Shown here: positions 8,790-62,272 of the stretch, in pieces
Position numbering within the stretch: position 1 is the stretch's first letter
How the letters are laid out: every line of letters begins with the position of its first letter
NCBI RefSeq assembly: GCF_004010195.1
Contig: NC_057753.1
Span: 6,841,960 to 6,905,959 of the forward strand
Source: Chiloscyllium plagiosum
Taxonomy: Eukaryota
Direction of reading: 5' to 3'
DNA length: 64,000 nucleotides
Made by a program: the position numbers and the translations under genes
The notes under the pieces: generated by a model
Database searches by the model: none
What the model was told of the DNA's origin: nothing
Seen by the model: only the letters and a program-made list of their open reading frames with translations

Positions 8790-10222
8790 TATTCGGCCTC
8801 AAGCTCAGTGACCAGTGGTGTTCTGCAGGGTTCTGTTCTGGGATGAGGAAGTGTAAGGGTGGATTAGTAAGTTTGCCAATGACGCGAAGGCTAGTGAAGG
8901 TGTGGTTCGTGTCGAGACTGTTGTATGTTGCAATGGGACATTGACAGGATGCAGAGCTGGGCTGAGAAATGCCAGATGGAGTTCAAAGTGTGAAGTCATT
9001 TGCGTTGGAAGGTTGAATTTGAATGAGAATTACAGGGGTAAGGGCAGGATTCTTGGCAGTGTAGAGGAGCAGAGCGATCTTGGGGTCCATGTCCATAGAT
9101 CCCTCAAAGTTGCCACCCTACTTGCTCGGGTTGCTAAGAAGGTGTATGGTGTGTTGGCTTTCATTAGCAGGGGGATTGACTTTAAGAACCACAAGGTTAT
9201 GCTGCAGCTCTGTAAAGCCCTGTTTAGACAACACTTAGAATATAGTGTTCAGTTCTGATCGCCTCATTATAGGAAAGATGTGGAACCTTTAGAGAGGGTG
9301 CAGAGGAGATTTACCAGGTTGCTGCCTCAACTGGAGGGCATGCCTTATGAAACAAAGGTTGAGGGAGCGAAGAAGGATGAGAGGTGACTTGATAGAGGTA
9401 TGTATAAGATTATGAGAGGCATAGATAGTGTGGATAGCCACAGACTTTTTCTTCTGGTGGAAGTGGCTATCAAGAGGGGCTACAATCTTTAGGTGTAGGG
9501 GAGCTGTCTGAGGTAGGTTTTGGGAGAAAGTGAGGACTGTAGATACTGGAGATCGAAGTAGAGAGCGTGGTGCTGGAAAAGCACAGTAGGTCAGGCAGCA
9601 TCAGAGGAGCAGGAGAATCGATATTTTCGGCATAAGCCCTTCATCGCCTCTACACCCAGCTCCATCCCAGGTCCTAGCTCCCAGCCTGCCATGTCTTCAC
9701 TATTCCTCCAGACTTCACTGAAGATGAACGTTTAGTCCTCAGCAAAGACCTCCCCTTCATCCCTCTACGTTCCCGGATTAATGAGTTCGACATGAATTGC
9801 AACCTTCGCCTGCCTTCGCCTCTGAGCCCACTTTATAAATCAAGACTCCTGTCCACCAACGAGGACCCCTTCTTTTGCCTCCGACACCACCCCATCCACC
9901 TGGACACCTCGTACTGGCCTGTTACCCACCCTCAATTAATTCCTGATGAAGGGCCTATGCCCAAAATGCCGTTTCTCCTCCTTCTCGAATGCTGCCTGAC
10001 CTGAGGTAGGTTCTTCACACAGAGGGTGGTGGGTGTGTGGAATGCACTGCCAGCTGTGGTGGTAGAGTTTGATACATTATGGACATTTAAGAGACTCTTG
10101 GATAGACACCTGGATTATAGTAAAACGAAGGGCATGTCTGTCATTTTGATCTTAGAATGGGATAAAAGGTTGGCACAACATCGAGAGCCAAAGTGCCTGT
10201 ACTGTGCAGTAATGTTCTATGT
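8790..10222 (+). mobile_element. CR1 LINE 3' part, interrupted by a PLE at 9520-10000
   Basis: RT C-terminus (DLGVHVHRSLKVA, LEYSVQF); gttctatgtt tail. Confidence 0.9.
9520..10000. mobile_element. PLE derivative: inverted terminal repeats around an N-terminal ORF relic
   Basis: TSD CTGAGGTAGGTT at 9508-9519 and 10001-10012; hammerhead-like ctgatgaagggcctatgccc near 9943. Confidence 0.75.
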
Positions 10223-21859: not shown

Positions 21860-24800
21860 TCCATCACTGCAATGAGAACATAACTAAACCCAGGGATTGA
21901 ACTCTTCGAGAGGGTTTAACTAGTTTGGCAGGAGGATAGGAATCGGAGGATGGGGTAGCTGGCGAATGAACAGGAACAGCACGCGGAGTGTCTGTGAGGA
22001 AAGATACAGTTGTTTTGGTAAAGTTGCAGTTAGTGTGATGGGTTGAAGTATTTCTATTTTAACGCAAGAATTGTCAGAATTAAGGGTGTCAAACTTAGAG
22101 CATGGATCAGTACTTGGAACTGTGATGTTGTGACCATTATGGAGACTTGGATATCACAGGTAGGAATGGTCCATTGGATGTTCCGGGTTTAGATGTTCCA
22201 AAAGGAAGAGGGAAGTAGGTAAAAGAGTGGAGGTGTGGCATTGCTAATCAGGGATAGTACCACGGCTGCAGAAAGGGAAGTGGTTGAGGAGAGTTTGTCT
22301 ATAGAGTCAGTATGGATGGAAGTCAGAGACAGGCAAGGAGCAGATACTTTATTGGGAGTTTTTTACGGACCCATCAAAAGCAACAGAGACATGGAGGAGC
22401 AGATTGGAAGACAGATTTTTGAAAGATGCAGAAGTAACGGGTTGTTGTCATTGGGTGACTTTAACTTACCGAACATTGATTGGAACCTCCTTAATGCAAA
22501 TAGTTTGGATGGAGCAGTTTTTGTCAGCTGTGTCCAGGCAGGATTCCTGACCCAATATGTAGATAGGCCGACTGGAGGGGAGGCAGCGAACCAGGCCAGG
22601 TGTCAGATCTCTCGGTGGGAGAGCATTTCGGTGATGGTGATCACAACTCCCTTACCTGTATTATAGTCATAGAGAGGATAGGAACACACTGTCCAGGAAA
22701 GTACTTAATTGGGGGTGCAGGAACTGTGGAGCATACATTAGGTCCAGGTATTCTCAGGGAATTGCACAACAGAAATGTGGAGGTTGTTTAAGGAGGACTC
22801 GCGAATGCTGGGTGGGTTTGTCCAGCTGAGGCAATGGTAGGGTGATGGAATCTTGGATGGCAAGAGATGTGGAACATCTAGTCAAGAGGAAGAAGGAAGC
22901 TTACTGAGTTGATGAAGAAAGGATAGGACAGGGCTTTAGAGGGTTACAGTGTAGCCAGGAGGGACCTGAAGAATAGACTTAGGAGAGCTAGAAGGAGGCA
23001 TGAAAAAGCTTTGGTGGGTAGGATTAAGGAAGATCCTATGGCGTTCTACATCTACGTGAGAAACAAGAGGATGGCCAGAGTGAGGGTAGGGCCGACCAAG
23101 GACAGTGAATGGAATTTGTTCCTGCAGTCAGAGCAGGTAGGGGTGGTCCTGAATGAATACTTTGCTTCAGTATTCAGGCGTGAGAGGGACCTTGTCGTTT
23201 GTGAGGACAGGCATGAAACAGGCTGATATGCTCAAACAGATTGATGTTAAGAAGGAGATTGTGCTGGAGATTTTGAAAAGCAGACGGATAGGTAAGTGTC
23301 TTACACCACGTGGGATATCCTCAAGGTTACGACAGAAAGTGAGAACAGATTGATGTGACTTTGGCGGTGATCTTTGTGTTCTCACTGTCCACTGGAGTAG
23401 TACCAGATGATTGGAAGGCGGCAAATGTTATTCTCATGTTCAAGAAACTGAATAGGGATAATCCTGAGAATTACAGACCAGTCAGTCTTGCGTCAGTGCT
23501 GGGCAAATCATTGGAGAGGATTCTGAGAGACAAGATTTATGATGATTTGGAAAAGCATAGTTTGATTGGAAAAGTCAGCATGCCGTTGTGAGGATCAGGT
23601 CATGCCTCATAAGCCTTATCGAATTCTTTGAGGATTTGACAAAACACATTGTTGAAGGTAGAGCAGTGGATGTGGTGCACATCGATTTTAAAAAGGCATT
23701 TGATAAGGTTCCCCTTAGTAGGCTCATTCAGAAAGTAAGGAGGCATAGGATACAGGCAAACTTGGCTGTCTGGATACAGAATTGGCTGGCCCAGAGAAGA
23801 CAAATGGAAAGTAGTGTATGGAAAGTATTCAACCTGCAGCTTGGTGACCAGTGGTATTCTGCAGGGACCTGTTCTGGGACCTCTGCTGTTTGTGATTTTT
23901 ATGAATACCTTGTATGAGGAAGTGGATGGATGGGTTAGTAAGTTTGCTGATGACATGAAGGTTGGTGGAGTTATGGATAGTGTAGATGGGTGTTGTTGGT
24001 CGCAATGGGACATTGACAGGACGCAGAGCTGGGCTGATAAATGGCACATGGAGTTGAACCTGGAAGAGTGTGAAGTGATTTGTTTTAGAAGGTTGAGTTT
24101 GATGCAGATCACAGTGTTAAAGGCAGGATTCTTGGCAAAGAACAAAGAAAACTTACAGCCGAGGAACAGGCCCTTCAGCTCTCCAAGCCTGAGCTGATCC
24201 AAATCCACTTTCTAAACCTGTCACCCAATTTTTAAGCATCTGTATCCCTCTGCTCCCCACCTACTCATGCATCTGTCCAGATGCACCTTAAATGAATCTA
24301 CCGTACCTGCCTCTACCACCTCTAGTTCCAAACGCCCACCACCCTCTGTGTGAAGTACTTGTCGCATGTATCCCCCTTAAACTTTTCACCTCTCACCTTG
24401 AAAACGTGACCTCTCGTTATTGATTCCTTCACCCTGGGGAAAAAGCTTATCTCTATCCACCCTGTCTATACTCTTCATGATTTTGTAAACCTCAATCAGG
24501 TCGCCTCTTAATCTCCTTTTTTCTAATGAAAACAAACCTAACCTACTCATAGCCAGCACCTTCCATATCAGGCAACATCCTCGTAAACCTTCTCTGCACC
24601 CTCTCCAAAGCATCCACACCCTTTTGGTAATGTGGTGACCAGAACTGTACACAGTATTCTAACTGTGTCCGAACCAATGTCTTGTACAATTTTAACATGG
24701 CCTGCCAGCTCTTATACTCAATGTCCCATCCAATGAAGGCAAGCATACTATATGCCTTCTTGACCACTCTATCCACCTGTGCACCAATCTTCAGGGTACG

Positions 24801-25800
24801 ACCACTCTATCCACCTGTGCACCAATCTTCAGGGTACAATGGACCTGCATTCCCAGATCTCTCTCCTCATCAACTTTTCCCAAGGCTCTTCCATTCATTG
24901 TATAATTCGCTCTAGAATTAGGCTTGCCTAAATGCCTCACCTCACATTTATCTGGATTGAATTCCATCTGCCCCTTTTTCACCCAACTCTCCAGTCTATC
25001 TATATTCTCCTGTTTTCTCTGACAGTCCCTTATGCTTTCTGCTACTCCACGAATCCTCGTGTCATCTGCAAACTTGCTGATCATACCAACAGTGCCCTCT
25101 TCCAGATCACTTATGTATATCACAAACAGATTGGAGGAACGGGGATATTGAGGTCCATGTCCATAGATCCCTCAAAGTTGCCACCCAAGTTGATAGGGTT
25201 GTTAGGAAGGCATATGGTGTGTTGGTTTAATTAGCAGGGGGATTGAGTTAAGAGCCGTGAGGTTGTGCTGCAAATCTGTAAAGCCCTGGTTCGACCACAC
25301 TCGAAATATTGTGTTCAGTTCAGGTCACCTCGGTATACGAAAGATGTGGAAGCTTTAGAGAGGGTGCAGAGGAGATTTCCCAGGATGCTGCCTGGATTGG
25401 AGGGCATGTCTTAGGTTGAGGGAGCTCTGGCTTTTCTCACTGGAGTGAAGAAGGATGAGAGATTACTTGGTAAAGGTGTACAAGATGGTGAAAGGCATGG
25501 ATAGAGCGGATAGAGACGACTTCCCAGTGTGGCTATTACCATAATTTTAAGGTGATTGGTGGAAGGTTTAGGGGAGATGTCAGAGGTAGGTTCTTTATTC
25601 AGAGTGGTGGGTGCGTGGACTGCACTGCCAGCAGTGGTAGTAGAATCAGATACGTTAGAGACATTTAAATGACTCTTGGATAGGCACATGGATGATAGTG
25701 TATGGTATGTAGTTTAGTTTGATCTTAGAGTAGGATAAAAGGCCGACACAACATCGAGGTCCAAAGGGCCTATACTGTGCTGTACTGTTCGATTTTCTAC
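21860..25800 (+). mobile_element. Near-complete decayed CR1 ORF2 (APE and RT) with a nested - strand CR1
   Basis: LGDFNLPNIDW, NYRPVSLASV, DFKKAFDKVP and KFADDMKV; resumes at ~25129. Confidence 0.9.
24141..25128 (-). mobile_element. CR1 3' fragment nested in CR1
   Basis: KFADDTRI and [12 protein letters not shown] on the minus strand; internal 38-bp tandem duplication at 24762-24837. Confidence 0.9.
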
Positions 25801-26768
25801 TATAGAAACCGTCAGTTTCTGTCCAGTAAGTACTGCGAGTGCCCTGAACGTTTCTGTACTGTCTGATCAATATTTCACCTGGGTCTGGGTCTTTTAGCGA
25901 TGATTTGAATTTGATTTCCTCCAGTTACTGAGTCACTGACTGTTGAAGACATTCCATTTCACAGAACCTTCTCGTTGGAAACTCGAATTACATCAGGGAA
26001 AGAGGCACGATCTGGCTGTTAGTTACAACATAAACCTGAACCACAGTGAGAGGCGAATAGAATAGATTCTCATGTGTCATGCTTATAATTGTGAAACATG
26101 AGAAATAACAGCAGGCAGAGGAATTCAGGATTATTGAGAAAATGACTGAAGTGAAAAGGAAGTATTTCACCATGGTTGTGAGCAGTGTTGTCCAGACTCT
26201 GACACTTAGCAATGGAGTGGTTTGAAGCAGCTAGCAGATAGGAGTTTGTAGTGAGGCCAATGTCTTCTGTCTTGCCAATATTTAAATTTCTGCTCGCCCA
26301 GTTGAGATATCAGACGTGTCAGGAATGTGTGTGATTGGGAGGTGACATTGTTGATATCAACCTCCGAGTCCGGTCTTTCTGGGTGGTAGAAGTTGTTCGG
26401 TTCTGTCAAAGTTCTGATCAATGTCCCTGTCCGTCTCCTCCTGCAGAGACGAAACGCTAGTGTTGGCCCGGACTGAGTGGCAGATTCCCATCACTGAAGG
26501 ACAGCAGTCAACTAAATGGGTTTTTGTTACAATCCAGTAGGTTACACGGTCAATTTTTCCCAGTGTCAGCCCCACACATTACCAGATTCATTCAGCTCCA
26601 TTTCAGAATTGTTAATCGTGTTTTTTTTTGATGTGGGTTTTCTCTCACCCCTTTTCTCTTTCATAGATCAAGTCACAGGAAGCTGGAAGGTTTGCATCCA
26701 GTAACATTGCAACAGGATTGACAGAGTCATCCGTTTTATCTTAACCTGAACATCGACGGAGTTTGAAC

Positions 26769-28130
26769 ATGGAAGAGAAGAACACCAGTCCCAGTGCGGA
26801 GGGATCACGGGAAGGTGGGGATGGTGGAAAGGAATTGAGTCCCATGTCTGAGCTGGAATCTCATCAACACAGTCACACAGGGAAGAAGCCATTCATCTGC
26901 TCCCAGTGTGGGAAGGAATTCACTGAATTATCCAACCTCCTCAGCCACCAGCACGTCCACACTGGAGAGAAACCATTCAAATGTCCAGACTGTGGGAAGT
27001 GCTACAAATGTTCCAAGGACTTGGTGTCTCACCAACGTGTTCACACTGTAGAGAGACCGTTCAAGTGCTCTCACTGCGGAACTGGGTTCAGGTTGCCATC
27101 GCAACTGACTGTACACCAGCGGATTCACACCGGGGAGAGGCCGTTCATCTGCTCTGAGTGTGGGAAAGGATTCACTCGGTCGTCTGACCTGCTCAAACAC
27201 CAGCGGGGTCACACTGAGGAGAGACCGTTCCGGTGCTCCCACTGTGGGACTGGTTTCAAGCAATCGTACGATCTCACCGTGCACCAACGAATTCACACTG
27301 GGGAGAGGCCGTACTCCTGCTCCGAGTGCGGGAAGGACTTCACTCGTTTGTCCAATCTGCTCAGTCACCAACAAGTTCACACCGATGAGAAACCTTTTAA
27401 GTGTCCAGAGTGTGGGAAGGGCTATAAAAATTCATGGAAACTGAAGTCCCATCAACGTGTTCACTCTGACGAGAGACCGTTTCGATGCTCTGACTGTGGG
27501 ATGATGTTCAAGCGATCATTTCAACTCACTGTTCACCAGCGCATTCACACCGGTGATGGGTTATTCACCTGCTCCAAGTGTGGGAAGGGATTCACTCAGT
27601 TATCCAATCTCCAGTCACATCAGCTAGTTCATACCGATGAGAGGCCTTTTCAGTGCACGGACTGTGGAAAGAGTTTTAAAAGTTCTGCAGGACTGATCCG
27701 TCATCAACGTATTCACTCTGATGAGAAACCGTTCATGTGTTCTCAGTGCGGAGCGAGGTTCACACAGTCATATACTCTCACTGTGCACCAGCGAGTTCAC
27801 ACTGGGGAGAGGCCATTCACCTGCTCCGAGTGTGGGAAAGGATTCCGTCGAGCATCCAACCTACTGGAACATCAGCGGGTTCACGCCACGGAGAGACCTT
27901 TTAAATGTTCAGCCTGTGAGAAGAGCTTCAAATGTGCCCGGGACCTTATGTCCCATCAGTGTGCACCCGCTGAAGCGACACCCTTCAGATGCTCTCATTG
28001 CGCGCCTGAGTTGGAGCAGTCATCCCAGTTCTCTGTAGATCAGCGACTCCACACTGAGCAACAACTGTTTATCTGCTCCGAGTGTGGGAGGAGTTTCACT
28101 CCATCATCCAAATTGCTGACACACGAGTGA
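26769..28130 (+). CDS. Tandem C2H2 zinc-finger protein, 453 aa: 12 canonical and 3 degenerate fingers, no effector domain visible
   Basis: Uninterrupted ORF with TGE(K/R)P linkers; ATG at 26769 in an aacATGg context; polypyrimidine tract and AG acceptor at 26665-26666; AATAAA at 28510-28515. Confidence 0.9.
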
Positions 28131-29019: not shown

Positions 29020-29575
29020 CATAGAATCGCTACAGTGTGGAAACGGGCCCTTCGACCCAACAAGGTCCACATCGACCCTCCAAACAGTAACCCACCCGGA
29101 CCCAAACAGTAACCCACCCGGACCCAATCCGCCCACTCTATATTTACCCCTGACTAATGCACCTAACCTACACATCCCTGAACACTATGGGGCTATTTAG
29201 TACAGTCAATTCACCTCACCTGCGCATCTTTGGACTCTGGGAGGAAACCGGAGCACCTGGAGGAAACCCACGCAGACACAGGGAGAATGTACAAACTCCA
29301 CCCGGGTTCCTGCTGCTGTAATAAAAGCAAATTACTACGGATGCTGGAATCTGAAACCAAAAGAGAAAATGCTGGAAAATCTCAGCAGGGCTGGCAGCAT
29401 CTGTAAGGAGAGAAAAGGGCTGATGTTTCGAGTCGAACTGACCCTTTGTCAAAGCTTTGACAAAGGGTCAGTTAGACTCGCAAAGTCAGCTCTTTTCCCT
29501 CCTTACAGATGCTGCCAGACCTGCTGAGATTTTCCACCACCTGCTGCTGTAAGCAGTGCGAACCACTGAGCCACC
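29020..29575 (-). mobile_element. HE1-type SINE split by a palindromic PLE insertion
   Basis: SINE tail and core at 29020-29310; head resumes at 29553 (gcagtgcgaaccactgagccacc). Confidence 0.85.
29322..29539. mobile_element. Fold-back PLE-terminus element with variant hammerhead cores
   Basis: TSD CCTGCTGCTGTAA at 29309-29321 and 29540-29552; palindrome centred on AAGCTT at 29452-29457. Confidence 0.85.
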
Positions 29576-29584
29576 AAGCCCCCA

Positions 29585-29790
29585 AAGTTTTTGTACTTGC
29601 TGCCCCTCAAGGATCTATCCTTGGTCCTTCCTATTTGTCATCAACGTGCTGCCAGGAGGTAACATTTTCCAAGAGCCCTGCATTAGTTTTCACATGTATG
29701 CTGACAAATGCCCAGCTTTACCTCAAAAGTGTCCCTCTCCATTGCTCCACTGCTACTCAATTATCAAACTTCTTAGTGCGTATCTGTCTC
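29585..29790 (+). mobile_element. L2-like LINE RT relic
   Basis: PQGSILGP-coding segment, homologous to 40905-41120. Confidence 0.6.
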
Positions 29791-33449: not shown

Positions 33450-35735
33450 AGTTATAGACCAACAGGTTTATTTGAAAACACTAACTTTTGGAGTGTTGCT
33501 TGTGCAGCAGGACCAGAAGATACAGAATTTATAGCAAATGTGTCACAGAGTTGTAATGATATAGTAAACAAACTTAGATTAAGTCTTGCATCTTTTAGGA
33601 TGGGAAATGTTTGCTTGGGCTCTCTACAATGTAAATTCGAGAACTCGCTTTTCACTCACATCCTCAAGGTGTCTTCAGTTTACCTAACAATTGGTGTTAT
33701 CTCAAGGTAAGTCATGCAAATTTATGGGGTGGATCTGTATCTGCAGAGCTGCGTTTTATTTTTTCCTCAAAAACTGCATAAATCCATGCAATATTCTGTA
33801 AGTCCCACTTTCGAAAATAAGACTGACTCAACATTGGAACAGATTTTAAGTTCACACTGTTAATATGTTGTCTGAGCTAAGATAATACCTGTTGTTATAT
33901 GAACTGAAGCCAACTTTGTTGGTAGACCGACAGGAGACTGGAGAACACAGCAGACCAGGTAGCATCAGGAGGTGGAGAAGGTGACAGTTTTGGTGGTAGC
34001 CCTTCTGCAGGATTGGGTGTGGGGGGAGCTGTGGATAAAGGAGGTGGTGAGGTGAGGATGGGTAAAGATGGGTATAGGGTATGACCTGGTTGGTTAATGG
34101 GAGGAGTGAATCTGGTTGGTGGCAGGGAAGAGGGGATGACGTTGGAGAGGGATTCGGGGGATGCGGAGGGACATTATATGATTTGGAGGTACCGGTGTTG
34201 GACTCGGGTGGACAAAGTTAAACATCACACAACACCAGGTTATAGTCCAACAGGTTATTTGGAAAACTTTTGGAATGCTGCTCCTTTGTCAGGTAGCTAG
34301 TGTGGCAGATAGGCACAGAACTAGCTATCTGCCGAAGAAGCAGTGCTTCAAAAGCTTGTACCTGGTGTTGTGTGGTTTTCAACACAATAGAAAGAAAATG
34401 TGGTGTTGGCAGACTAAGCGTGCATGGCTGTTCCAATTAATTGGAGTGAATAAGGGGTGAGGCTGAATTTCAGATGGACAAGTCAGGAGATGTTTTCCTG
34501 GAAAATCATGATGTGGAGGTGCCAGTGTTGGACTGGGGTGGACAAAGTCAGAAGTCATATAACACCAGGTTGAGTTCTGTGGGCTGTAGACTGCCAAGGC
34601 AGAATATTAAGACCCACACAACACCAGGTTATGGTCCAACAGGTTTATCTGGAAGCATTAGCTTTAAGAGTGCTGCTCCTTCATTGGGTGGTTGTGGAGA
34701 ATAAGATTTTAAGGCATAGAATTTATAGCAGAAGTTTACAGTGTGATGTAACTGAAATTATACATTGAAAAAGATCCGGATTGTGTGTTAAGTCTCTCAT
34801 CTTTTAGAATGACCATGTTGGTTTCAGTTGTTTCATATTGTAAATTGCAAAACGTTTTTAAAAAGTTACATTCTCAAGTGCACTTTAACAATTGGTGTCT
34901 TGTCGGCTCAGATAAGGTATTGAAGGTGTTAACTCCCTGTGAGGCTGTCTGTGCCACAATGGTCAGACTGATTCTAACCTAAAAAACAGATTTACAGAAT
35001 ATTACATGGATTTATCCAGTTTTTGAGCAAAATAAAATGTAATTCTGCAAGTACAAATTCACCCCACAAACTTTTATGTGTATGTTTGCATGTGTTTTTG
35101 GTGGGTGGGGGGAGGTAGAGGGGTTATGAGTGTCTGTTAGAGGTGTGTGTGAGTGTAAAGGGATATAAGGCTGTGTGTGGGAGTCTATGAGAGAGGGTGT
35201 GCGTCTCAAATTCCAAATAACCTCCCTTCCCAGTCCCTCCCCCTCCCTTCCACTCCTCCCAGCCACCAACCAGGTCTATTCCTCCCATTGCTGGAAATGT
35301 GTTGCTGGAAAAGTGCAGCAGGTCAGCCAGCATCCAGGGAACAGGAGAATCGATGTTTCGGGCATAAGCCCTTCTTCAGGAAGGCTTATGTCCGAAACGT
35401 TGATTCTCCTGTTCCCTGGATGTTGCCTGACCTGCTGCGCATTTCCAGCTCTGATCTCCAGCATCTGCAGACCTCACTTTCTCCTCAAATATTCCTTCCA
35501 TTGACCAACCAGGTTGTACCCTCTGCCTGTCTTCACATGTCTCCGCCTCATCACCCTGACCCTGCCACCCTGTTTATCCCCCCAACCCCACCCCTCCCCA
35601 CCCAGTCCTGAAGAAGGGATACACCCAAAATATTTTCTTCTTTACTTCCTGATTCCACGTGGGTTGCTGTGTTCCTCCAGCCTCCTGTGTCTATTTTGGA
35701 TTCCAGCATCAGCAGTTTTGTTTTGTGTCTAGCCA
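33450..35735. mobile_element. Pile-up of PLE terminal-repeat fragments from several families
   Basis: Repeated acacaacaccaggttatagtccaacagg motif (same family as 59760-62270), plus a second family at 33920-34170 and 35205-35735. Confidence 0.75.
35291..35489. mobile_element. Fold-back PLE-terminus element nested in another PLE terminus
   Basis: TSD TATTCCT(C/T)CCATTG at 35277-35290 and 35490-35503. Confidence 0.85.
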
Positions 35736-40889: not shown

Positions 40890-41265
40890 GAAGTCCTTGT
40901 ATTTGGTGTCCCTCAAGGATCTATCCTTGGTCCCTCCTGTTTCTCATCTACATACTTCCAGATGGTGGTGAGGTAGAGCTGGGCATTGTCAGTGAACATG
41001 TGAAAATTAACATCGTCCTAAAGCACCGTGTTAGTTTTCACATGTTCACTGACATTGCCCAGCTCTACCTCACCACCATCCCTCTCCATTGCTCCACTGT
41101 TACTCAATTGCTAAACTGCTTCCAGTACTCAATGAGTAGAAATATTCTCCAAGGAAACACTGGGATGGTTAATCCCATTGCCTTCTCTTACTGTTACAAA
41201 TTACTTTCCCTTACTACCAAGTCTATTCCTCTGGCTGGGAACTGTCTGAGGCTGATCTATAATCC
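40890..41265 (+). mobile_element. L2-like RT relic
   Basis: GVPQGSILGP and FHMFTDIAQLYL. Confidence 0.65.
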
Positions 41266-43800: not shown

Positions 43801-45729
43801 CAGTACTGTGGTGTACTCAGAGCACGTGGACTGCAGCAATTCAAGAAAGTTGTTCACCACCACTTTGTCCGAGTCAGATAAACATGGAGAATAAGTACTG
43901 GCCTGGGCAGCCATCAACACACCCCGTTCATAACCTAAAATTATGGTGGGTTTCTGTTTTGTGGAGAGCTAGCAGAAGCTCAGATAATTGTCCTTGCAGC
44001 TTAGAAGGTTAAGCAATGATTTATTCGAGTTGTATATTTGTTCCCAGGATATTTAATTTGTAGAGACAGAATGAAAATATTAACGTTGTTACAATGTTTG
44101 ATAACCACAGAATATAAGTTTCAGATATTTAGCAAATAATGCCGGGTGAATTCAGCATGTTCTGAGGATCTGGAACAGTCTGAACTGGATGGAGATTCAG
44201 CAGTTATTCTCGAAAGAGATTTGGAATTTAACTTTTAAATGAAAGATTAAGAGGGCTGTGGGCAAATGGCAGGGAAATTGGGACAGATTTGGAGGATTTC
44301 TAGGGTTAGATTAAAGCCTTTGACAAGGTTCTGCATGGTTGTCTAATTAGTAAAGTTACATCATAGGGAGAGCTTGCCAATTGGGTACAACATTGGCTTT
44401 AAGGTAGGAGACAGACGGTGATGGTGGAGGGTTGTTTTTCACAGTGGAGGCCTGTGATCAGTAGTGTTCCACAGAGTTTGGTATGAGGTCCATTTGTGTT
44501 TCTTTTATATGAATGATTTGGATGAAGATATAGAGAGTATGGTAAGTACATTTGTAGATAATAATTAAATTAAATAGTGAATAGGTTGCTGTAGCAACCC
44601 ATGGCTAAGTTGACAAAATGGCCGCTCGGGCTTTTTTAAACTAACACAAAATGGCCGAAAGGGTTTGACAGTTACAGACACCAGATGTTCACAGCTCAAC
44701 TTGTAGTCTTCATATGAGATTGTCTGGGTAAAATGAAATTCTCCGTCAGAAGAGACGTTAAGGAAGTTAATCAAGTTTCTGTGAATGGGCAGTTTTAAAC
44801 ATCCAGGCATTCTAATAAGGGGCATTTTGCAAGGCCTAATTTAGCCAAGTTCCAAGTTTGTTATTTAGTAAAATGTAGAAGGAAAAGCCTGATCGTACAG
44901 TATTCTGAAATGTTTAAGTAATTGTCAAATTAGAAATGCAAATCACAAATTAGAGTGAAAAAGTTAGTTACAAACTTGAGCAAATGTTTATAAGCAGTAA
45001 AGAGGCCCAATGCATTTTGAGGGAAGATAAAGTAATAATTAGTGTAAACACGACCTTCAAAAAACCATTGACATAGAAGAAAGGTTGTAAATAGAGAGGT
45101 CATGACTGGGAAGGTAAACAACTGAAACTTAAGTGCAGATATAGATAATTTGGACAAATTCCTACATCCAAAGATCAAGGAAAGATTGATAAAGTCAGAT
45201 TACAAAATTTAGAGTGACAATGTGATTTTTTTGTGAAATTTAAAGTTTTGTTTACTGGCTTGGTAAAATTGTAAAGTGGTTGAATTTCACTCTCATCAGA
45301 TGCTTTTACAAAGAAAAGATCATTTGCAATGTGAAATGTTTACAGTGGAAACAGTAAAGATTTGTTTAAAAATGAAATTTGAGATTAAAATCCGCTTACA
45401 GCACGTAGATGGCAGTGGTCGTAAACTGCAATTGCATGTCAGAGAGACTGTTGTTTGATGTCTCAAACAAGTGAAAGAGGGTTGCTCTCAATTTGCCATC
45501 TGTGTCAATTTAACTTTATATTAGAGTTGATTTTAAAGGCTTTATAACAATTGTTACAGATTAATATCCTTCCTAATCTGCTATACTATTAATAAAGTTA
45601 GTACAGAATGTGTAAGATTTCTTAGTGAAAAGCAAGTATTTGGGTTATTGGTATATAATGTGGTGCAGCTGGTAAGTCTCTGGGAAGAAATAAAACTGTC
45701 AGAAGCATTGTAAGATCCCAAAGATAGAT

Positions 45730-45962
45730 GAGCTGAAAATGTGTTGCTGGAAAAGCGCAGCAGGTCAGGCAGCATCCAGGGAACAGGAGAATCGACGTTT
45801 CGGGCATAAGCCCTTCTTCAGGAAGCCCTTCCTCATTCCTGAAGAAGGGCTTATGCCCGAAACGTCGATTCTCCTGTTCCCTGGATGCTGCCTGACCTGC
45901 TGCGCTTTTCCAGCAACACATTTTCAGCTCTGATCTCCAGCATCTGCAGACCTCACTTTCTC
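45730..45962. mobile_element. Young fold-back PLE-terminus element with perfect 95-bp inverted arms
   Basis: Arms 45730-45824 and 45836-45930; TSD CCCAAAGATAGATGA at 45717-45731 and 45963-45977. Confidence 0.92.
45835..45870 (+). ncRNA. Minimal type-I hammerhead ribozyme motif (mirror copy on the minus strand at ~45790-45825)
   Basis: CUGAAGA-A-GGGC-UUAU-GCCC-GAAAC-GUC; predicted cut after 45866. Confidence 0.75.
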
Positions 45963-46553
45963 CCCAAAGATAGATGATGAAGACATCTGATAAACATCAT
46001 GAGATTATGGGAGGACCTAGGGCAGTCCGTCGAGTTGCCATCATTGATCATGGATTGTATGTACAGCTTAGGGGAATGTGGCTAACAATGACATCAATGT
46101 TGCATGTCATTATTATAACGAAGGGTATAAAAATATATTTCACTGGGGAGCTCAGTGGCTTTCCGATCTGAGCTGTGATTAAGAGGGCAATTAAGCCCCA
46201 TGTGAAAGGCAGATTTGGGGTGTCTCTGGCTTCTCCCACAAATGTGGCAATAGAACTCTAAATAAAGGCCACTTTGGCGAAGAAACGCAGAACTTAAGAC
46301 TCGTCTTTGGTAGGCAAATCAAAGGTAAATCTAAGATTACAAAGAGGTATTGGTCAACGAGGTGAGGAGTGGGAGAGGGTTTAATTTTGTTAAGTGTGAG
46401 TTAAGGATATAAAGATAGAACATACAAATTATTAGTAGGGCCTGGATAGTGTTGTATAATAGAGAGACCTAGGGGTTCAGGTACATAATTCTTTGTAGTT
46501 TGTATCACAGCTGGTTAAGAAGGGGTTTAGTATGCTTGCCTTCATTGTTCAGT

Positions 46554-46783
46554 GTTGAAACTTTATTGCTGGAACAGCACAGCAGGTCAGGCAGCATCCA
46601 GGGAACAGGAGATTCGACGTTTCGGGCACAGGCCCTTCTTCAGGAAGCCCTTCCTCATTCCTGAAGAAGGGCTTATGCCCGAAACGTCGAATCTCCTGTT
46701 CCCTGGATGCTGCCTGACCTGCTGTGCTGTTCCAGCAATAAAGTTTCAACTTTGATCTCCAGCATCTGCAGACCTCACTTTCT
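46554..46783. mobile_element. Young fold-back PLE-terminus element with 93-bp arms
   Basis: Arms 46554-46646 and 46658-46750; TSD CCTTCATTGTTCAGT at 46539-46553 and 46784-46798. Confidence 0.92.
46657..46692 (+). ncRNA. Minimal type-I hammerhead ribozyme motif
   Basis: AUUC-CUGAAGA-A-GGGCUUAUGCCC-GAAAC-GUC-GAAU; 4-bp helix I. Confidence 0.8.
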
Positions 46784-48229
46784 CCTTCATTGTTCAGTCC
46801 CTTGAGTACAAGAGTTGGGAAGTCCTGTTGCGGTTGCAGAGGACATTGCTGAGGCTTCTTCTGGAGTACTGTGTGCAGTTCCAGTCTCCTGTTGAAGAAA
46901 TGATATTGTTCAACTGGAGAGGGTTGAGAAAAGATTTTGCGGCATGTTGCCTGGAGTAGACTGAAAAGGCTGGATTTTTTTTTTCCACTGGAGCGTAGGA
47001 GGTTGAGGGGTGACCAAATTGATGTTTATAAAATGAGGGGAATAGATTAAGTGAGTAACAAAAGTCTTTTCCCTTGGGTGGGTGACTTCAAAACTAGGGA
47101 AGCACATTTTTAAGGCGAGAGGAAATATTTTAAAAAGGAAAGGAAGGGTATTTTTTTTTAAACAAGGTGATTCATGTGTGAAATGTGAGGGAGAAGTGGA
47201 TGTATGCCCGGTCGTAATGTTTATAAAAGACATGTTGATAAATTTACACCAATGGGAAAGTTTTGGAGCTGTATGGGCCAAAAGCAGGCAGATGGGACCA
47301 GTTTAGTTTGGGAACATGGTCGGCGTGGGCTGGTTGGACCGAAGGGTCTGTTTCATGCTGTATGACTGTGAGAGAGTACAGCTGCAATGGGCTGAATGGA
47401 CCTCAACCCCAGTGCTCTGTGATACTGTTCCATTCACTGTGAATGGTGAAGCTCATCCCAGGGCAGGGAGAGAGAGGATCCCATCACTTACCTCACAATG
47501 GGGCCCAGCTGATTGACAGGTGTATGCATGCACAGGTTTCCTAATGCAAGGGGAGTGCTGCTGGGGTTTGAGGATTCGAATGCAGCCAATTTAAACCAAG
47601 GTAAATGATTGTCATTTCGAGGTTTCTGCTTTGGACTGACAGTACATTTTCGTGAACTTCTTTTGCAGGATATTAATTGAGAATAATTTGCACTCCAGGA
47701 TCTCAAAACACGTTCTGACAGAGTCAGCAGAGCCATCAGGACCTGAATATTATTGGCGTTTACTGTGGAAGGAAAAAGGTTTGTCTATGGGAAAAATATT
47801 TCCAAAATGGTTGTAATTCAAAACACAGCAAGTTGTTCAGGCTCCTGTGTCTGGGCCCTGCAGCTGAGGAAGGAGATATTGCCTTGACGGGGGCCGGGGC
47901 ACAGATTTATACAGGTAACACCTCATCTCTTGGGACAAACTGTTATATTTACTCCCAGTCTCACACTTCACGATTAGAGCCTATAAGTTTCTCATTGTCT
48001 AAAGAGCTGCAAATTCCCATTTTTAAATTTGTTATGAATTTGCAATCCAGCACCCCTTCTGCTGGGATGTTCCAGATCCCGACAACTCTCTGTTGATCCA
48101 GAAACTGCAGAATTCTGTGTGAAGTCTGGAGGGTTATTAAGGGTTATATTGAGAAATGGGAGACTCTTCCCCGAGCTCCCATGGAGCTTCACTGCACGAG
48201 TCAGAGTGGTCCCTGTGAGTGCTGCTTCG

Positions 48230-50904: not shown

Positions 50905-51815
<911 letters not shown>

Positions 51816-54469: not shown

Positions 54470-55600
54470 TCAATGGCACCTTGATCAGATGTGCCAATGG
54501 GCTAAGGAATGGTTGATGGAGTTTAGATTGGATAGATTTGAGCTATTACATTTTGCTAAGGCAAACCAGGTAGGAATTATACAGTCAATGGGAAGGCCAT
54601 GGGCAGTGTTGCTGAATAAAGAGACCGAGGGCAGCAGCTGCGTATTTCATTGTAAGTAGATTTGCAGGTAGACAGGGTAGTGAAGAAGGCGTTTGGCACA
54701 CTTGCCTTCATTTGTCAGTGCACTGAGTATAGCAGTTGGGGTGTTTTGTCGCAGCTCTAATAGACATTGGTCAGGCCTGTTTTAGAATACTGCTTTAAAT
54801 TCTGGTCTCCTTGCTATGGAAAAGATGTTGTTAAACATGTGAGGGTGCAAAAATAATTCACAAGGGTGTTGACAGGATTGGAGTGTTTGAGATATTGGAA
54901 GAGGCTTGGGCAATTTTTTCTCTGGAATGTCGGAGGCTGCTTTATAGAGGTTTATATGATCATGAGGGCAATTGATAGGGTGAATAGCCAAGGTCTTTTT
55001 TATGGGGTAGGACTCCAAAACGAGTGGGTATAGGTTTGATGCCATTCCTGAAGAAGGGCTTATGCCCGAAATGTCGATTCTCCTGTTCCTTGGATGCTGC
55101 CTGACCTGCTGCGCTTTTCCAGCAACACATTTTCAGATCTGATCTCCAGCATCTGCAGTCCTCAGTTTCTCCTTGAAGATTTTAACCTACTGCGACTCCT
55201 CTTGCAAGGATGCCTTCCTTGAAGAAGCTGTCTTCCTCCCTCTCCTGAAGAAGGGCTTATGCCCGAAACGTCGATCCTCCTGTTCCTTGGATGCTGCCTT
55301 ACCTGCTGCACTTTTCCAGCAACACATTTTCAGCAGAGGTTTAATGTGACAAGGGTAAGATTTGAAAGATTTGACCTCGGGCAACTTTTTCATGCAGAAG
55401 GTGGAACCAGATGCCAGAGGAGTTGGTGGAAGTGGATACAATTACAACATTTAAAAGGCATCTGGCTGGGTAGATGAATAGGAAAGTTTTAGAGGGATAT
55501 GTGCGAAATGCTGGCAATTCGGACTAGATTAGTTTAGGATATCTGTTGGCACAGAAAAGTTGGACTGAGAATCTGTTTCCATGCTGTATAACTCTTACTA
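54470..55600 (+). mobile_element. CR1 3' fragment interrupted by a tandem PLE terminus
   Basis: RT C-terminus and 3' UTR. Confidence 0.8.
55042..55336 (+). mobile_element. Direct-tandem PLE termini with two hammerhead motifs 197 nt apart
   Basis: CTGAAGA at 55048 and 55245; TSD AGGTTT(G/A)ATG at 55032-55041 and 55337-55346. Confidence 0.85.
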
Positions 55601-56346
55601 TCTCTGTAAATTCCCCGGTCCCTGCAACAGTACCTAGCTCTGTAATTTTCTCCAGCCTGTAACCTGTTCCAGCCCCAGCATAACTTGCTTTCTATGTAAT
55701 CTAGTCCAGAGTCACAGTCCTCCCTATCAGTGTAACCTCATCCAGCTTCACAACCCTCCCCTACCTCTCTGATCCCCCACAGCCTCACAATTCTCCCTAT
55801 CTCTAATAACACCTCCCCCCCCCTCCAAACCTACAGTTTCACAACCTTCCCTATCTCTCTAATTTCCTCAACCTCAGAGCCCTGGTTATTTGTGTAACAA
55901 CTGTCCAATTGCAGAATCATCTCTGATGTTAGATAATGTGTTGTAATTTTTTGAAGTGCGAGCTAGTTGGGATGCCTTGTTTCTTGTGACCAGTTGGGGA
56001 GACCTGCTGCTTCCGATATGATGTCTCTCTTTGAGATGTATGGAGCCGAAATCTGGTCTCACGCTGACACTGACATGCCACATTACACATTACTGTGAGA
56101 AACAGAACATTGTCCTGTTCTGGCAAAGAACATGTACAGGGCACACTCAACTGATGGGAACTGGGGAGGCAGTTCAAGAACTTGGACAGTGTACTGGGAG
56201 ACAGCATGTTGATACTGTCTGGTGTTAGTGAGCTGTGGGATGGGTATTGACCAGTACCAAATCCCTCCACCCTCCCCCATCCTCACTCGTGCTCTTACTC
56301 TGCTGCACACCAGCTGGTGGAGATAGGTGACAAGTTTGTAAGTTGT

Positions 56347-56815
56347 CGTGGTTGTGTTCGCCGAGCTGGGAATTTGTGTTGCAGACGTTTCGTCCCCTGA
56401 CTTGGATCTCAGCAATTGATGGTGGTCAAATGTAGGTCAGCAATATGGAAACTGTCAGAAATCAAGGAGCACTGGGTTCCGGTTGTCAGTTCCAGCTGTC
56501 CGCTGCAGTGGCCGGTATGTTGGGTCCAGGTCGATGTGCTTATTGATTGAATCTGTGGATGAGCACTATCAATAAGCACATCGACCTGGACCCAATATAC
56601 TGGCCACTGCAGCGGACAGCTGGAACTGACAACCGGAAGCGGCAGATACAAATCACTATAAATGCTGGAGGAAACATCACAGAAGCGCTTCACATGAGGC
56701 TCCCAAGCACTGAGGATGTCACCTAGACAGGGGACGAAACGTCTGCAACACAAATTCTCAGCTCGGCGAACAGAACCACAACAACGAGCACCTGAGCTAA
56801 AATCTTCTCCCAAAC
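56347..56815. mobile_element. Fold-back PLE of a different family carrying the ORF C-terminus
   Basis: TSD TTTGTAAGTTGT at 56335-56346 and 56816-56827; reading frame INKHIDLDPIY...STEDVT* on the + strand. Confidence 0.85.
56707..56746 (+). ncRNA. Minimal type-I hammerhead ribozyme motif
   Basis: GCA-CUGAGGA-U-GUCACCU-AGAC-AGGGGAC-GAAAC-GUC-UGC. Confidence 0.8.
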
Positions 56816-56925
56816 TTTGTAAGTTGTATTATCCTGTTTAAGACATCTCCTGCACAGACATGGTCATGACCTTCATGGGTCCAGTTCAGAGCTATACTTG
56901 AAGTTCCTCAGAAGCAGTTTCTCTC

Positions 56926-57715: not shown

Positions 57716-58374
57716 CTGTCAGTCTCTGGAATCTCCTACAACCTCACAACCTTCCATGCACCCAGTGCTCCTTGATTTCTGACAGTTTCCATATTGCTGA
57801 CCTACATTTGACCACCATCAATTGCTGAGATCCAAGTTGTCTCTCCTCATTGAAGATCTTAAGATCAACCTGTTTGGCCATGTGTGAACTGTTGTGCAAG
57901 GTTTTACAGTTCTGTATAAATACAAGTCATTGATGTTACCTGCAATGGTCAATCTCAACAAGATGACAGACCAAGCTTGTGTCCACTGAAGTTCAGAAGA
58001 GTTAGAGGTAACTTGGTTTAGACTGAGGGGACTTGACCATCCACAGTCAGACGAAATCTTAATGAATCACAAAGCAGGCTCGATGGGCCAAATGGCTTAT
58101 TCCTGCATCTATCTCTTATTTTCAGCCATAGCGATTCAAGCACCCCATGCCCACAACTCTCAAAGGGGCCCTGTTCATCTAAGCTTGACAATTCCAAAGA
58201 TGTGCAGGTTAGCTGAATTGGCCATTCTAAATTACCTGAGTGTTAGGTGCACTAGTCAGGGTTTAAATGTAGAGTAATAAGAGACTCAACTGCGCAATGC
58301 AGGATCAGGAGTGTGAGGCAACCGTGTCATCAAATGTTTTGGAGCTGCCCTTTCTGGTAGCTACAGTGCTCCTG

Positions 58375-59269: not shown

Positions 59270-59620
59270 AGGAGCCAGAGTTGGACTGAGGTGCACAAAG
59301 TTAAAAATCACACAACACCCAGGTTACAGTCCAACAGGTTTATTTGGAAGCATTAGCTTTCGGAGCGCTGCTCCGTCAGCAGGTGGTTGTGGAAAATACG
59401 AGAGTAGGACAGAGAATTTATCGCGAACGTTTACAGTGTGATGCAACTGAAATTATATATTGGTCTTTTTCAACATATAATTTCCATTGCATCACACTGT
59501 AAACTTCTGCTATAAATTCTGTGTCCTCCGATCTTAACCTCCGCAACCACCTGATGAAGGAGCAGCGCTCCGAACCTGTTGGACTGTAACCTGGTGTTGT
59601 GTGATTTTTAACTTTGTACC
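59270..59620. mobile_element. Fold-back copy of the PLE terminus of the 59760-62270 family
   Basis: ~165-bp imperfect arms around ~59465; ctgatga-a-ggagc-agc-gctcc-gaa at 59551. Confidence 0.8.
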
Positions 59621-59759
59621 CCTCTGGGTCACTCACCATCCTGCTCTGGAACGGTATCAGCTCTCCTTCATTTTCCCCGGGTCGGAATCCTGGCATTCCC
59701 TCCCTCATGTCGGTGTGGGTGCACTGCAGCGGTTCAAAATGCAGCTCACGGTTTTGTTT

Positions 59760-62272
59760 GGAGGAGCCGGTGTTGGACTGGGAAGTACAAAGATAAAGAT
59801 CACACAACACCAGGTTACAGTCCAACAGGTTTATTTGGAAGCACTAACATTCAGAGTGCTGCTCCTTTAGGTGGCTGTGGAGTACAGCCACAAGGCACAG
59901 AATTTACAGCAAAAGATTACAGTGTCATGCAACTGAAATGATGCATTGAAAGAAAACTTAGATTGCTGTTAAGTCTTTCATCTTTTAGAATGACCATGTT
60001 GTTTTCAGTTCTTTCATATATAAAACCCAGAACCTTCTTTGAAGTTGCATTCTCAAATGAACTTTAACAAAAGCTGCCATATCAGCCCAGATAATGCACT
60101 GAATGTGTGAGTCTGCCTGTACCTCAACGTTCAGATTGGTTCTAATCTAAAAAAGGGATTGACAGAATCTTACATGGATTTGTGCAGTTTTTGAGCAAGA
60201 TAAAATGTAATTCTGCAAGTACAAATTCACCCCACTAACCTATATGTTGTGTGTGGATGTGGATATGTGTGTGGGGGGGAGGGGGGAGGGGGGGGGAAAG
60301 GGTTATAAGGCTGTGAGAAGGTGCATGTGGGAGTGTATGTGTGAGCATATGAGAGAGAGCTTATGTATGAGAGAGGGTCTGTGTGCGTGTGTGCATCTGT
60401 AGGTGTGTGTGTGTAGGAGTGTCAATGTCTATGTGTGTATAGTGCAGTGGGGTCACCTATAGTGTGATATGGACTCAAGGTCCCGTTTGAGGCCATCCTC
60501 ATGGGTACCAAACTTGGCGATCAACTCTGCTTGGACACTTTGCACTGTTGCTCGTTCCGAAGTCCATCTTGTAGGATGGTCAACCGAAGGTCCGAGGCCG
60601 AATGTCTCAGACCGCTGAAGTATTCTCCGACTGCGAGGGAATACTCCTGTCTGTTGATTATTATGCAGTGTCCATTCATCCGTTACCGTAGCCTCTGCTC
60701 ATTCTCACCAATGTACCATGCCTCAGGGCACCATTGCCTGCAGCATATGAGATAGACAACGTTGGCCAAGTCACATGAGTACCTGGCAAGTACATGGTGG
60801 AAGGTGTCCCCACATGTAATGGTGGTATCTGTGTCAACACTCCGACACATCTTGCAGCGTCTACCAGAACAAGGTTGTATGGTGATTTCCTGAAAGCCGG
60901 AAAGTTTGCTGTGAACAATGATCTGTTTGACGTTTGGCGGTTGTTTAAAGTCAAGAAGCGGAGGCGTGGGGAAGGTCTTGGCAAGGTGCTCATCCTCATT
61001 GATAATGTGTTGCAGGCTGCAAAGAACATAGCGTAGTTTTTCGACTCTTGGGAAATACTGGACAACGAAGAGTACCCGGTCGTTTGCAGCTCCTGTCTGT
61101 CTCCTGAGGAGGTCGTTACGCTTTCTCACTGTGGCACATCGGAACTGGTGGTCGATGGGTTGAGCATCGTACCCCATTCTTATGAGGGCATCCTTGAGTA
61201 CCATCAGGTTCCTGTCAAGTTCCTCCTCATCTGAACAGATCCTATGTATGCGTAGTGCTTATCCGTAGGGAATGGCAGTTTTAATATGTTTAACGTGCAA
61301 GGTGGAAGAGTGTAGTATTGTGAGGTTATCTGTGGGTTTTCGGTAGAGTGAGGTGCTGAGGTCCCCATCCTTGATGGAGATGCATGTGTCCAAGAATGAT
61401 ACAGATACTAGAGAATAGTCCATGATGAGTTTGATGGTGAGAAACTCTGTGATATCACTGTGTAGTTGTTTCAGTGTCTCCTTGCCATGGGACCATAGGA
61501 AGAACATGTCATTGATATACCTGGTGTATAGTTTTGGTTGGAGGTCCTGCATATAGAATAAGTCTTGTTTGAACCTGTGCATGAAAATGATGGCATATTA
61601 GAGTGCAATTTTGTTTCCTCTGGCTGTTCATGCCACACTACAGGTGACCCAACTGCACTACATATGTGTGCACACACACTCCTACAGACCCATAAGCTCA
61701 CGCAGACCCTCTCTCATATACAAGCTCTCTCTCATACACTCACACACGCACCCTCTCACAGTCACTCATACCCCCCTGCATGCACACACCCACATGCACA
61801 CATATTTAAGTTTGTGAGGTGAACTTGTACTTGCAGAATTACATTTTTATTTTGCTCATAAACTGCATGAATCCATGTAAGATTCTGTCAATCCTTTTTT
61901 TTAAGATTAGAAACAGTCTGAACATTGGGGCACAGACAGCCTCACACAGGGCACCTCACACCTTTAATGCATTATCTGGCCAACATGACCCCTATTGTTA
62001 AAGTTCACTTCAGAAGGTAACTTTAAGAAAGTTCTGGGATTTAGATATTAAAAAAACTGAAACCAGCATGCCCATTCTGAAAGATGCAAGACTTACCAAA
62101 CAATTTAGGTCTTTTTCAATATATAATTGCAGTTATATCACACTGTAAACCTTTCCTATAAATTCTGTGTCCTACAACTTTATACTCCATAACCACCTGA
62201 TAAAGGAGCAGCACTCCGAAAGCTAGTGCTTCCAAATAAGCATTTTGGACTATAACCTGGTGTTGTGATTTT
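59760..62272 (-). mobile_element. Truncated Penelope-like retroelement: RT C-terminal half and GIY-YIG, between inverted pseudo-LTRs
   Basis: TRYINDMFFLW, FLDTCI, LYRKPTD, PCSGRRCKMC and NVVYLICC...WYIGE; 59760-60480 is mirrored at 61625-62272. Confidence 0.92.

Follow-up and report, generated by a model that had tools for sequence, protein, structure and literature searches.

Miniature inverted insertions of a Penelope-like element in Chiloscyllium plagiosum: two neighbours with a shared and possibly copied centre

Two short hairpin-forming insertions, here called E1 and E2, lie close together in the genome of Chiloscyllium plagiosum and raise the question of how two separate insertions, each within its own target-site duplication (TSD), came to carry exactly the same spacer between their inverted arms. 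They were analysed within a stretch of 64,000 nucleotides (positions 6,841,960 to 6,905,959 of contig NC_057753.1, RefSeq assembly GCF_004010195.1), which is called the window and from whose first base all coordinates are counted. In class and in the outline of the steps that formed them, both elements are very probably dead-on-arrival miniature insertions of an endonuclease-bearing Penelope-like element (PLE). The explanation that we favour as a whole, by a modest degree of belief, is that the two hairpins arose separately, each in the course of its own insertion, and that one centre was copied from the neighbouring element.

E1 occupies positions 45732-45962 (231 bp) and E2 positions 46554-46783 (230 bp), with 822 bp from start to start and 93% identity over 230 nt. 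E1 is composed of a left TSD of 15 bp (45717-45731), an inverted, tail-less PLE end module of 93 nt on the minus strand (45732-45824), a spacer (45825-45835), a direct end module of 93 nt on the plus strand (45836-45928), a one-sided tail of 34 nt on the plus strand (45929-45962) and the right TSD (45963-45977), an exact copy of the left one. The corresponding parts of E2 are the left TSD of 15 bp (46539-46553), an inverted, tail-less module of 93 nt from a second subfamily (46554-46646, minus strand), the spacer (46647-46657), the direct module (46658-46750, plus strand), the tail (46751-46783, plus strand) and the right TSD of 15 bp (46784-46798). In both elements the TSDs are exact direct repeats, the sequence of one pair is unrelated to that of the other, and the probability of one given 15-base match is about 1e-9. 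A preliminary description of this DNA, made from its letters, had proposed two insertions about 820 bp apart with 15-bp TSDs, and the measured positions agree with it. It had also given arms of 95 bp for E1 and 93 bp for E2; the latter length holds for both elements, and the former had counted two bases of the left TSD as part of E1. The E1 arms are 100% complementary, and those of E2 are mismatched at two positions (46629/46631 versus 46673/46675) within the stem-II loop of the ribozyme. The spacer, GCCCTTCCTCA, has its only two exact copies of the window in E1 and E2 and repeats the adjacent 11-mer of the arm with one mismatch, as had been noticed before. The unpaired tail of roughly 33 nt that had been ascribed to both elements measures 33-34 nt up to the TSD, or about 36 nt when the first bases of the right TSD that match the family tail end are counted; in E1 the family end runs 1-2 nt into the TSD.

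Recognisable in each arm are CUGAAGA, a bulged A before a stem II of 4 bp, GAAA and the palindrome ACGU. By its sequence, this motif fits the minimal hammerhead published for metazoan PLEs (PMC4209133, seen in part, like the other papers cited by PMC number below), with which it shares the CUGAnGA core, the bulged base, the G-C closing pair, GAAA and ACGU for stem III. In a motif scan that followed this description, the core (CUGAnGA - stem II - GAAA) was located in E1 at 45798-45821 on the minus strand, 3 nt from the inner end of the inverted module, and at 45839-45862 in the direct one; the cores of E2 are at 46620-46643 and 46661-46684. One such sequence motif is therefore present on each strand of both elements, as the preliminary description had claimed. 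The same paper reports pairs of minimal hammerheads on opposite strands 100-700 bp apart, whereas those of E1 and E2 are separated by only about 40 nt, share a single perfect hairpin that is predicted to prevent their folding, and have a stem II of 4 bp. From the hammerhead consensus, cleavage is predicted after 45866 in E1 and at 46688/46689 in E2. Rfam returned no hammerhead for the E1/E2 region at the gathering score and, up to E=10, 35 matches to generic hairpin models with no hammerhead among them; the best of these reached 54 bits against a gathering score of 99. On these grounds a microRNA (miRNA) or a hammerhead of a family curated in Rfam was rejected. A scan for the hammerhead core found no locus in metagenome contigs and none in viral contigs.

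The predicted fold of the E1 hairpin has an energy of -201 kcal/mol (z = -28.7), and none of 200 shuffled sequences was as stable. In the model, stem II pairs with a probability of 0.96 in a solo arm and of less than 1e-11 within the intact hairpin. Because folding inside the intact hairpin is blocked in these calculations, the ribozymes are predicted to be passengers.

The layout of E1 and E2 is the published PLE pattern, an inverted pseudo-long terminal repeat (pLTR), a pLTR, a tail and a TSD, shrunk to the end module. In both elements an inverted 5'-truncated copy stands head to head with the direct end repeat, the one-sided tail of 33-36 nt falls within 30-40 bp, the end repeat holds a minimal hammerhead motif and, to judge from contig bounds in a related organism, the TSD appears to be a single copy at the empty site. 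In the portions seen of PMC8557442, an adjacent inverted 5'-truncated copy and a one-sided 30-40-bp tail are given as general features of PLEs, and the origin of the inverted ends is described as still open; a curation guide (PMC8969392) names inverted pLTRs and 3' extensions as PLE peculiarities. The units of endonuclease-bearing PLEs (Penelope/Poseidon, Neptune, Nematis and Naiad; PMC3846280, PMC8557442) resemble E1 and E2 in the head-to-head inverted copy, the one-sided tail, the TSD, the palindrome at the inverted junction and the hammerhead motif in the repeat. In contrast to them, E1 and E2 consist of the end module alone (230 bp, without an open reading frame, ORF), belong to a very abundant family and, as neighbours, share a junction exactly; their TSDs have 15 bp and those of the Adineta units 8-10 bp (PMC3846280). 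Apart from the shared spacer, the features of E1 and E2 are those of an already known and published PLE insertion layout, a match that the preliminary description had not recognised. Its statement that the elements are built from PLE termini and are not MITEs (miniature inverted-repeat transposable elements) is supported by this layout and by the asymmetric arms.

Poseidon of Anolis carolinensis extends both target strands in vitro and begins reverse transcription at two internal sites that bound the tail; ribozyme cleavage was not needed and was not seen at RNA ends in the portions of the study consulted (PMC11167929). E1 and E2 likewise have two 3' ends that are one tail-length apart and roughly 80-120 nt 3' of the hammerhead. 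Measured from stem II, their distances are 82 and 118 nt, compared with 111-118 nt for the main anole site. Unlike here, inverted mini-insertions and cDNA stop points do not appear in those portions. In the literature covered, which was a part of the whole and main texts, neither miniature PLE fold-backs in cartilaginous fish nor neighbour-templated PLE junctions were found, which is weak evidence of absence.

Genome-wide evidence came from four public sequencing runs that were aligned, three of DNA (72,217-91,827 contigs aligned per run) and one of RNA, with run X11 representing a related organism, here organism B. In all four, loose contig or read ends accumulate behind 45963/45964, which marks the tail end of the whole family. 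From motif and repeat scans of the window, 18 arms of the family were chosen by hand; they form eight inverted pairs and one tandem, and further hammerhead families are also present. The eight pairs have seven different junctions, only those of E1 and E2 being alike, and at least 1,173 joint forms were counted in the runs (the 15 best supported, which were printed, and 1,158 more). The total is a lower bound, some forms having been left uncounted. Contigs that agree with the reference at the junction are not entered as joints, and those with only a small skip may be tabulated in another place. The proposal that the spacer is stereotyped is not supported in view of this variety. Varying spacers, which the preliminary description had named as evidence against its reading, are largely what was found.

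One end of the fold-back is far less variable. The CTGA box is kept in 11 of the 18 arms in the window, and the remaining seven end inside or past the core; leaving aside E1 and E2, no core-bearing arm shares more than five upstream bases with another. Ends at 45835, the last base of the E1 spacer, were followed upstream by mixed sequence (agreement 0.32-0.46) in 127, 172 and 199 contigs of the DNA runs and in 118 RNA reads, so this base is a 5' end hotspot of the family. Of the 15 best-supported joints, 13 have a longer arm that ends between -6 and +6 relative to the core; the end of the shorter arm falls at +32 to +101 of the module. The earlier suggestion that a stereotyped event takes place directly 5' of the core is thus retained for the position of one arm end (11 of 18 arms, 13 of 15 printed joints) and abandoned for the spacer. 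The fold-back point is stereotyped in one respect: an arm stops 2-5 nt short of the core, probably where the RNA has its 5' end and not at the cut site; ribozyme cleavage was rejected as the cause of the fold-back, the hotspot being 31 nt upstream of the predicted cut. We read the hotspot as run-off where the template reaches its 5' end. Position 45835 lies within TCATTCC, which we take to resemble an initiator (Inr), although this is a hint only; in each of the three DNA runs the consensus of the loose ends has G immediately ahead of this position, as might come from reverse transcription of a cap, again as a hint only. Drosophila Penelope has an internal promoter with Inr and a downstream promoter element (DPE), according to the part seen of PMC2377424.

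The pair at 35290-35484, of the E1 subfamily, has a junction resembling a direct self-primed fold-back at the 5' hotspot and a 23-nt deletion in the right arm. The partial tandem of the family at 55043-55334 consists of a tailed module plus about 70 nt more, in which an ORF may start, followed by a tail-less module, both modules starting 2-5 nt before the hammerhead core. A tandem joint printed from run X5 (45926 -> 45867, depth 466, multi-copy) restarts exactly at the predicted hammerhead cut, and microhomology with the tail might explain it equally well. At 29309-29552, another family forms a zero-spacer palindrome with 85-nt arms, a 13-bp TSD and a UUGACAA core variant resembling the U3-A8 variant of PMC4209133; its centre is about 2 nt before the core.

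The shared centre of E1 and E2 extends beyond the spacer. Positions 46632-46690 of E2 are identical over 59 nt to 45810-45868 of E1 (plus strand), and the subfamily differences resume directly on both sides of this tract, a candidate copy from the neighbour. The stem-II loop of the inverted E2 arm is CUGU, that of its direct arm is the E1-type UUAU, and second-subfamily bases are found in the direct arm from 46691 on. To judge from these sequences, the balance tips slightly towards the centre of E2 having been copied from E1, either as a bridge at joining or by later gene conversion. Such copying would explain the identical spacer, its mismatch and the unequal loops of E2 in one step. As a comparator, a different PLE fold-back of the window contains at its junction an exact 78-nt inverted copy (56400-56477, minus strand; 100% identical) of 57760-57837, a donor 1.3 kb away that is otherwise unique in the window. 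This fold-back belongs to another hammerhead family and has a 12-bp TSD (56335-56346 / 56816-56827); within 56335-56827 the copied piece is followed by a second internal fold-back with arms at 56477-56547 and 56568-56638. In L1, templated genomic inserts and twin priming have been described, and its insertions resemble E1 and E2 in the inverted segment, the preserved TSD, the junction microhomology and the genomic DNA templated into them; the inverted piece of L1 is a non-overlapping upstream part of the RNA, whereas both arms of E1 and E2 copy the same module (PMC11702581, in part).

The favoured mechanism would begin with a PLE protein cutting both target strands about 15 nt apart, an enzyme step suggested by the observed TSDs. 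Each target end would then prime reverse transcription at one of two internal start sites, the tail end or a point 34-36 nt earlier, so that the tail would be left on one arm only; these two ends are observed in the elements, the sites in the anole are published and twin priming is the presumed link. The two cDNA ends would be joined head to head, mostly with a one-off junction, in keeping with the variety observed. In the element formed first, the near-palindromic spacer would have been produced when the cDNA end slipped or briefly folded back, and a first origin of this kind is plausible: the spacer and its neighbours form a near-palindrome of 13 bp that is closed by 4 nt of loop (-11.6 kcal/mol as DNA). 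The other element, most simply E2, would have received its centre by copying from its neighbour at a distance of 822 bp, as the 59-nt identity suggests.

The rival that survives best accepts the same PLE origin and takes the spacer to be a recurrent, sequence-determined junction that arose independently twice, which we consider possible but less probable than copying. A cDNA end would fold on the near-palindrome upstream of the core, be extended by 6-8 nt and then pair through a 2-nt microhomology. The hairpin completed by the spacer suits this route, as do the junction palindromes published for Adineta and interpreted as self-priming (PMC3846280, in part), the copy at 35290 with its likeness to a simple self-primed fold-back at the same spot, and the multi-copy joints in the runs. 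The route requires, however, that the same mismatch and the same join arose twice within 822 bp in a family with more than 1,100 listed joint forms, while the other nine core-bearing arms of the window have no spacer-like upstream bases beyond 5 nt, and the unequal loops of E2 call for the second assumption of two templates.

Much less probable is the option of a non-autonomous hairpin family mobilised by PLE machinery, which the preliminary description had offered. Similar to MITEs or retrozymes, the members of such a family would be transcribed and put back as complete units, their spacer being constant. MITEs are class II elements that are short, carry inverted repeats, are flanked by a TSD and reach high copy numbers. 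Work on non-LTR retrozymes was reportedly carried out by Cervera and de la Pena in 2020. E1 and E2 do have the same spacer and a length of 230-231 bp, non-autonomous PLE derivatives exist (PMC8557442; bioRxiv 10.64898/2026.07.22.740005; both in part) and PLE ends are able to act in trans (PMC3846280, in part). The two elements nevertheless differ at 17 positions: seven differences are mirrored on both arms (14 positions), two are found only in the left arm of E2 and one is in the tail. The mirrored bases confirm that the elements come from different subfamilies, but they would require a concerted change of both arms in a hairpin family; as a hairpin master would be unable to give mirrored changes, each hairpin was built anew from its subfamily template. 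The diverse junctions in the window and in the runs likewise reveal no single internal structure inherited from a master, and a perfect duplex of 93 bp would conceal both the ribozyme and the priming sites. Unlike MITEs, with symmetric terminal inverted repeats and a short fixed TSD, E1 and E2 have arms made asymmetric by the one-sided tail, two unrelated TSDs that are long and variable in sequence, and a family in which the internal junction differs between copies. Non-LTR retrozymes are similar in being short, non-coding, PLE-derived carriers of a type I hammerhead that are present in one cartilaginous fish (bioRxiv 10.64898/2026.07.22.740005), but are head-to-tail tandems with a hammerhead per unit, not inverted pairs.

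An artefact of assembly might be suspected from the 93% identity at short distance and from the difficulty of assembling perfect hairpins, as might a tandem or segmental duplication by which one element later gave rise to the other. Both are very improbable, because the TSDs and flanks are different, the two arms each show differing subfamily bases, and organism B agrees with empty sites at the exact edges of both TSDs. The best DNA runs contain 0.67-0.84 of the words of the region, although they may be the source sample itself, and no listed contig spans a whole element; in runs X5 and X6, two other samples of the organism designated A, none of those listed bridges either site. The empty sites rest on record 7 of run X11 (675 nt, depth 3.5), which aligns to 45963-46538 with about 3% substitutions and leaves 25 unaligned letters before and 84 after this interval. 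Its bounds are the first base of the right TSD of E1 and the last base before the left TSD of E2, and therefore indicate empty sites with one TSD copy; the sequence fits both sites being empty in organism B. The elements had been described as young, with empty sites expected to keep a single TSD copy, and the near-perfect arms and the apparently empty sites with contig bounds at the exact TSD edges agree with both points.

Several observations weigh against the favoured explanation. Identical joints recur, the printed ones having a summed depth of 50-530 compared with 7-15 in the unique flank, and a recurrent junction is possible. RNA reads on the right arm of E2 show C at 46673 in 29 of 73 and G at 46675 in 42 of 73, the rest being otherwise; the UUAU loop may accordingly segregate within the E2 subfamily, although one expressed locus may dominate these reads. 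The frequency of the exact spacer is that of the 64-kb window and not of the genome, and the empty sites are deduced from the alignment bounds of one contig of depth 3.5, its joints not being among those printed. The runs list no accumulation of raw reads at molecule starts, which leaves a transcription start at the hotspot unsupported. In the window, the fold-back of a different PLE family (59288-59624; 59359-59574) has its centre about 100 nt upstream of its core, so that the position of the hotspot is family-specific. Finally, the ORF-like piece at 9648-9938, between two arms of the family, had no homologue in database searches, and these searches linked no autonomous partner to the family. 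The inverted pair concerned (9508-10012, 12-bp TSD) encloses about 290 nt that we take to resemble the decayed N-terminus of a PLE ORF, with negative database searches.

The family is very abundant: summed contig depth reached 4-8 million in the bins of the E1 arms versus 7-15 in the unique flank, values that are not a copy number. The RNA run was a single-cell poly(A) run, of which about 2% was used; it yielded 2,658 aligned reads, and 97% of them continue into other sequence; therefore, these reads come from other copies of the family. Most bins of the unique flank had no depth in this run, and no RNA data set was listed as containing the stretch. A>G and T>C together made up 67 of 160 RNA variant places, whereas the three DNA runs gave 23 of 105, 24 of 104 and 30 of 126 (P 0.0009-0.002 in Fisher tests). 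This excess fits adenosine-to-inosine (A-to-I) editing of hairpin transcripts, with the reservation that individuals differ, the places are not independent and the expressed subfamilies may introduce a bias. Behind 46784, 99 RNA reads of run X21 pass an E2-type tail into one sequence (agreement 0.96) that contains AATAAA, which suggests that, at some other locus, an expressed transcript ends 3' in a copy of the family.

The window as a whole is repeat-rich animal DNA with fragments of LINE-type reverse transcriptase and C2H2 zinc-finger exons. The exons at 26745-28130 and 51017-51750 encode zinc-finger arrays, with 11-13 fingers in the first, and suggest a zinc-finger gene cluster. A region of the hammerhead family whose fold-back lies at 59288-59624 (60401-61600, minus strand, and 59280-60280) shows a reverse transcriptase end, a Cys-rich linker and, by eye, a GIY-YIG-like motif, followed by the hammerhead-bearing end. 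Its decayed ORF at 60686-61258 has Atlas look-alikes that include clusters with GIY-YIG and HTH_animal (18-55% of members), and no hit was obtained for it in Pfam. A hairpin without a hammerhead motif, with 59-nt arms and a 2-nt loop, lies at 40961-41080, and its repeat is also found unfolded at 29585-29774. An exact 38-nt tandem duplication is located at a LINE fragment junction (24762-24837).

What is left of interest beyond the known layout is the likely neighbour-templated centre. A broader and rather doubtful reading is that PLE integration often leaves two cDNA ends that cannot be joined, and that the gap is then sealed with a copy of DNA from no further than about 1-1.5 kb away. In the same tentative reading, an older PLE hairpin nearby may serve as the bridge, whereby junctions would spread locally between elements, and the template of the direct arm of E2 may, from its sequence, have been a self-cleaved RNA, the switch of E2 back to its own subfamily lying within 46676-46690, the stretch that holds the predicted cut at 46688/46689. 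If this were true, the switch in E2 would be a trace, left in the genome, of a ribozyme active in vivo, and the abundant perfect hairpins would be a source of double-stranded RNA and A-to-I editing, like inverted Alus.

For repeat annotation, such elements should not be classed as MITEs or miRNA precursors. The class carries little weight in itself; its value is that of a fossil record of the still open mechanism by which PLEs acquire inverted ends. Thousands of such junctions could be used to test twin priming versus self-priming, to locate the start of the template RNA and to learn how frequently neighbouring DNA seals the join, and for this last question the E1/E2 pair is well suited, as subfamily markers bracket the shared tract.

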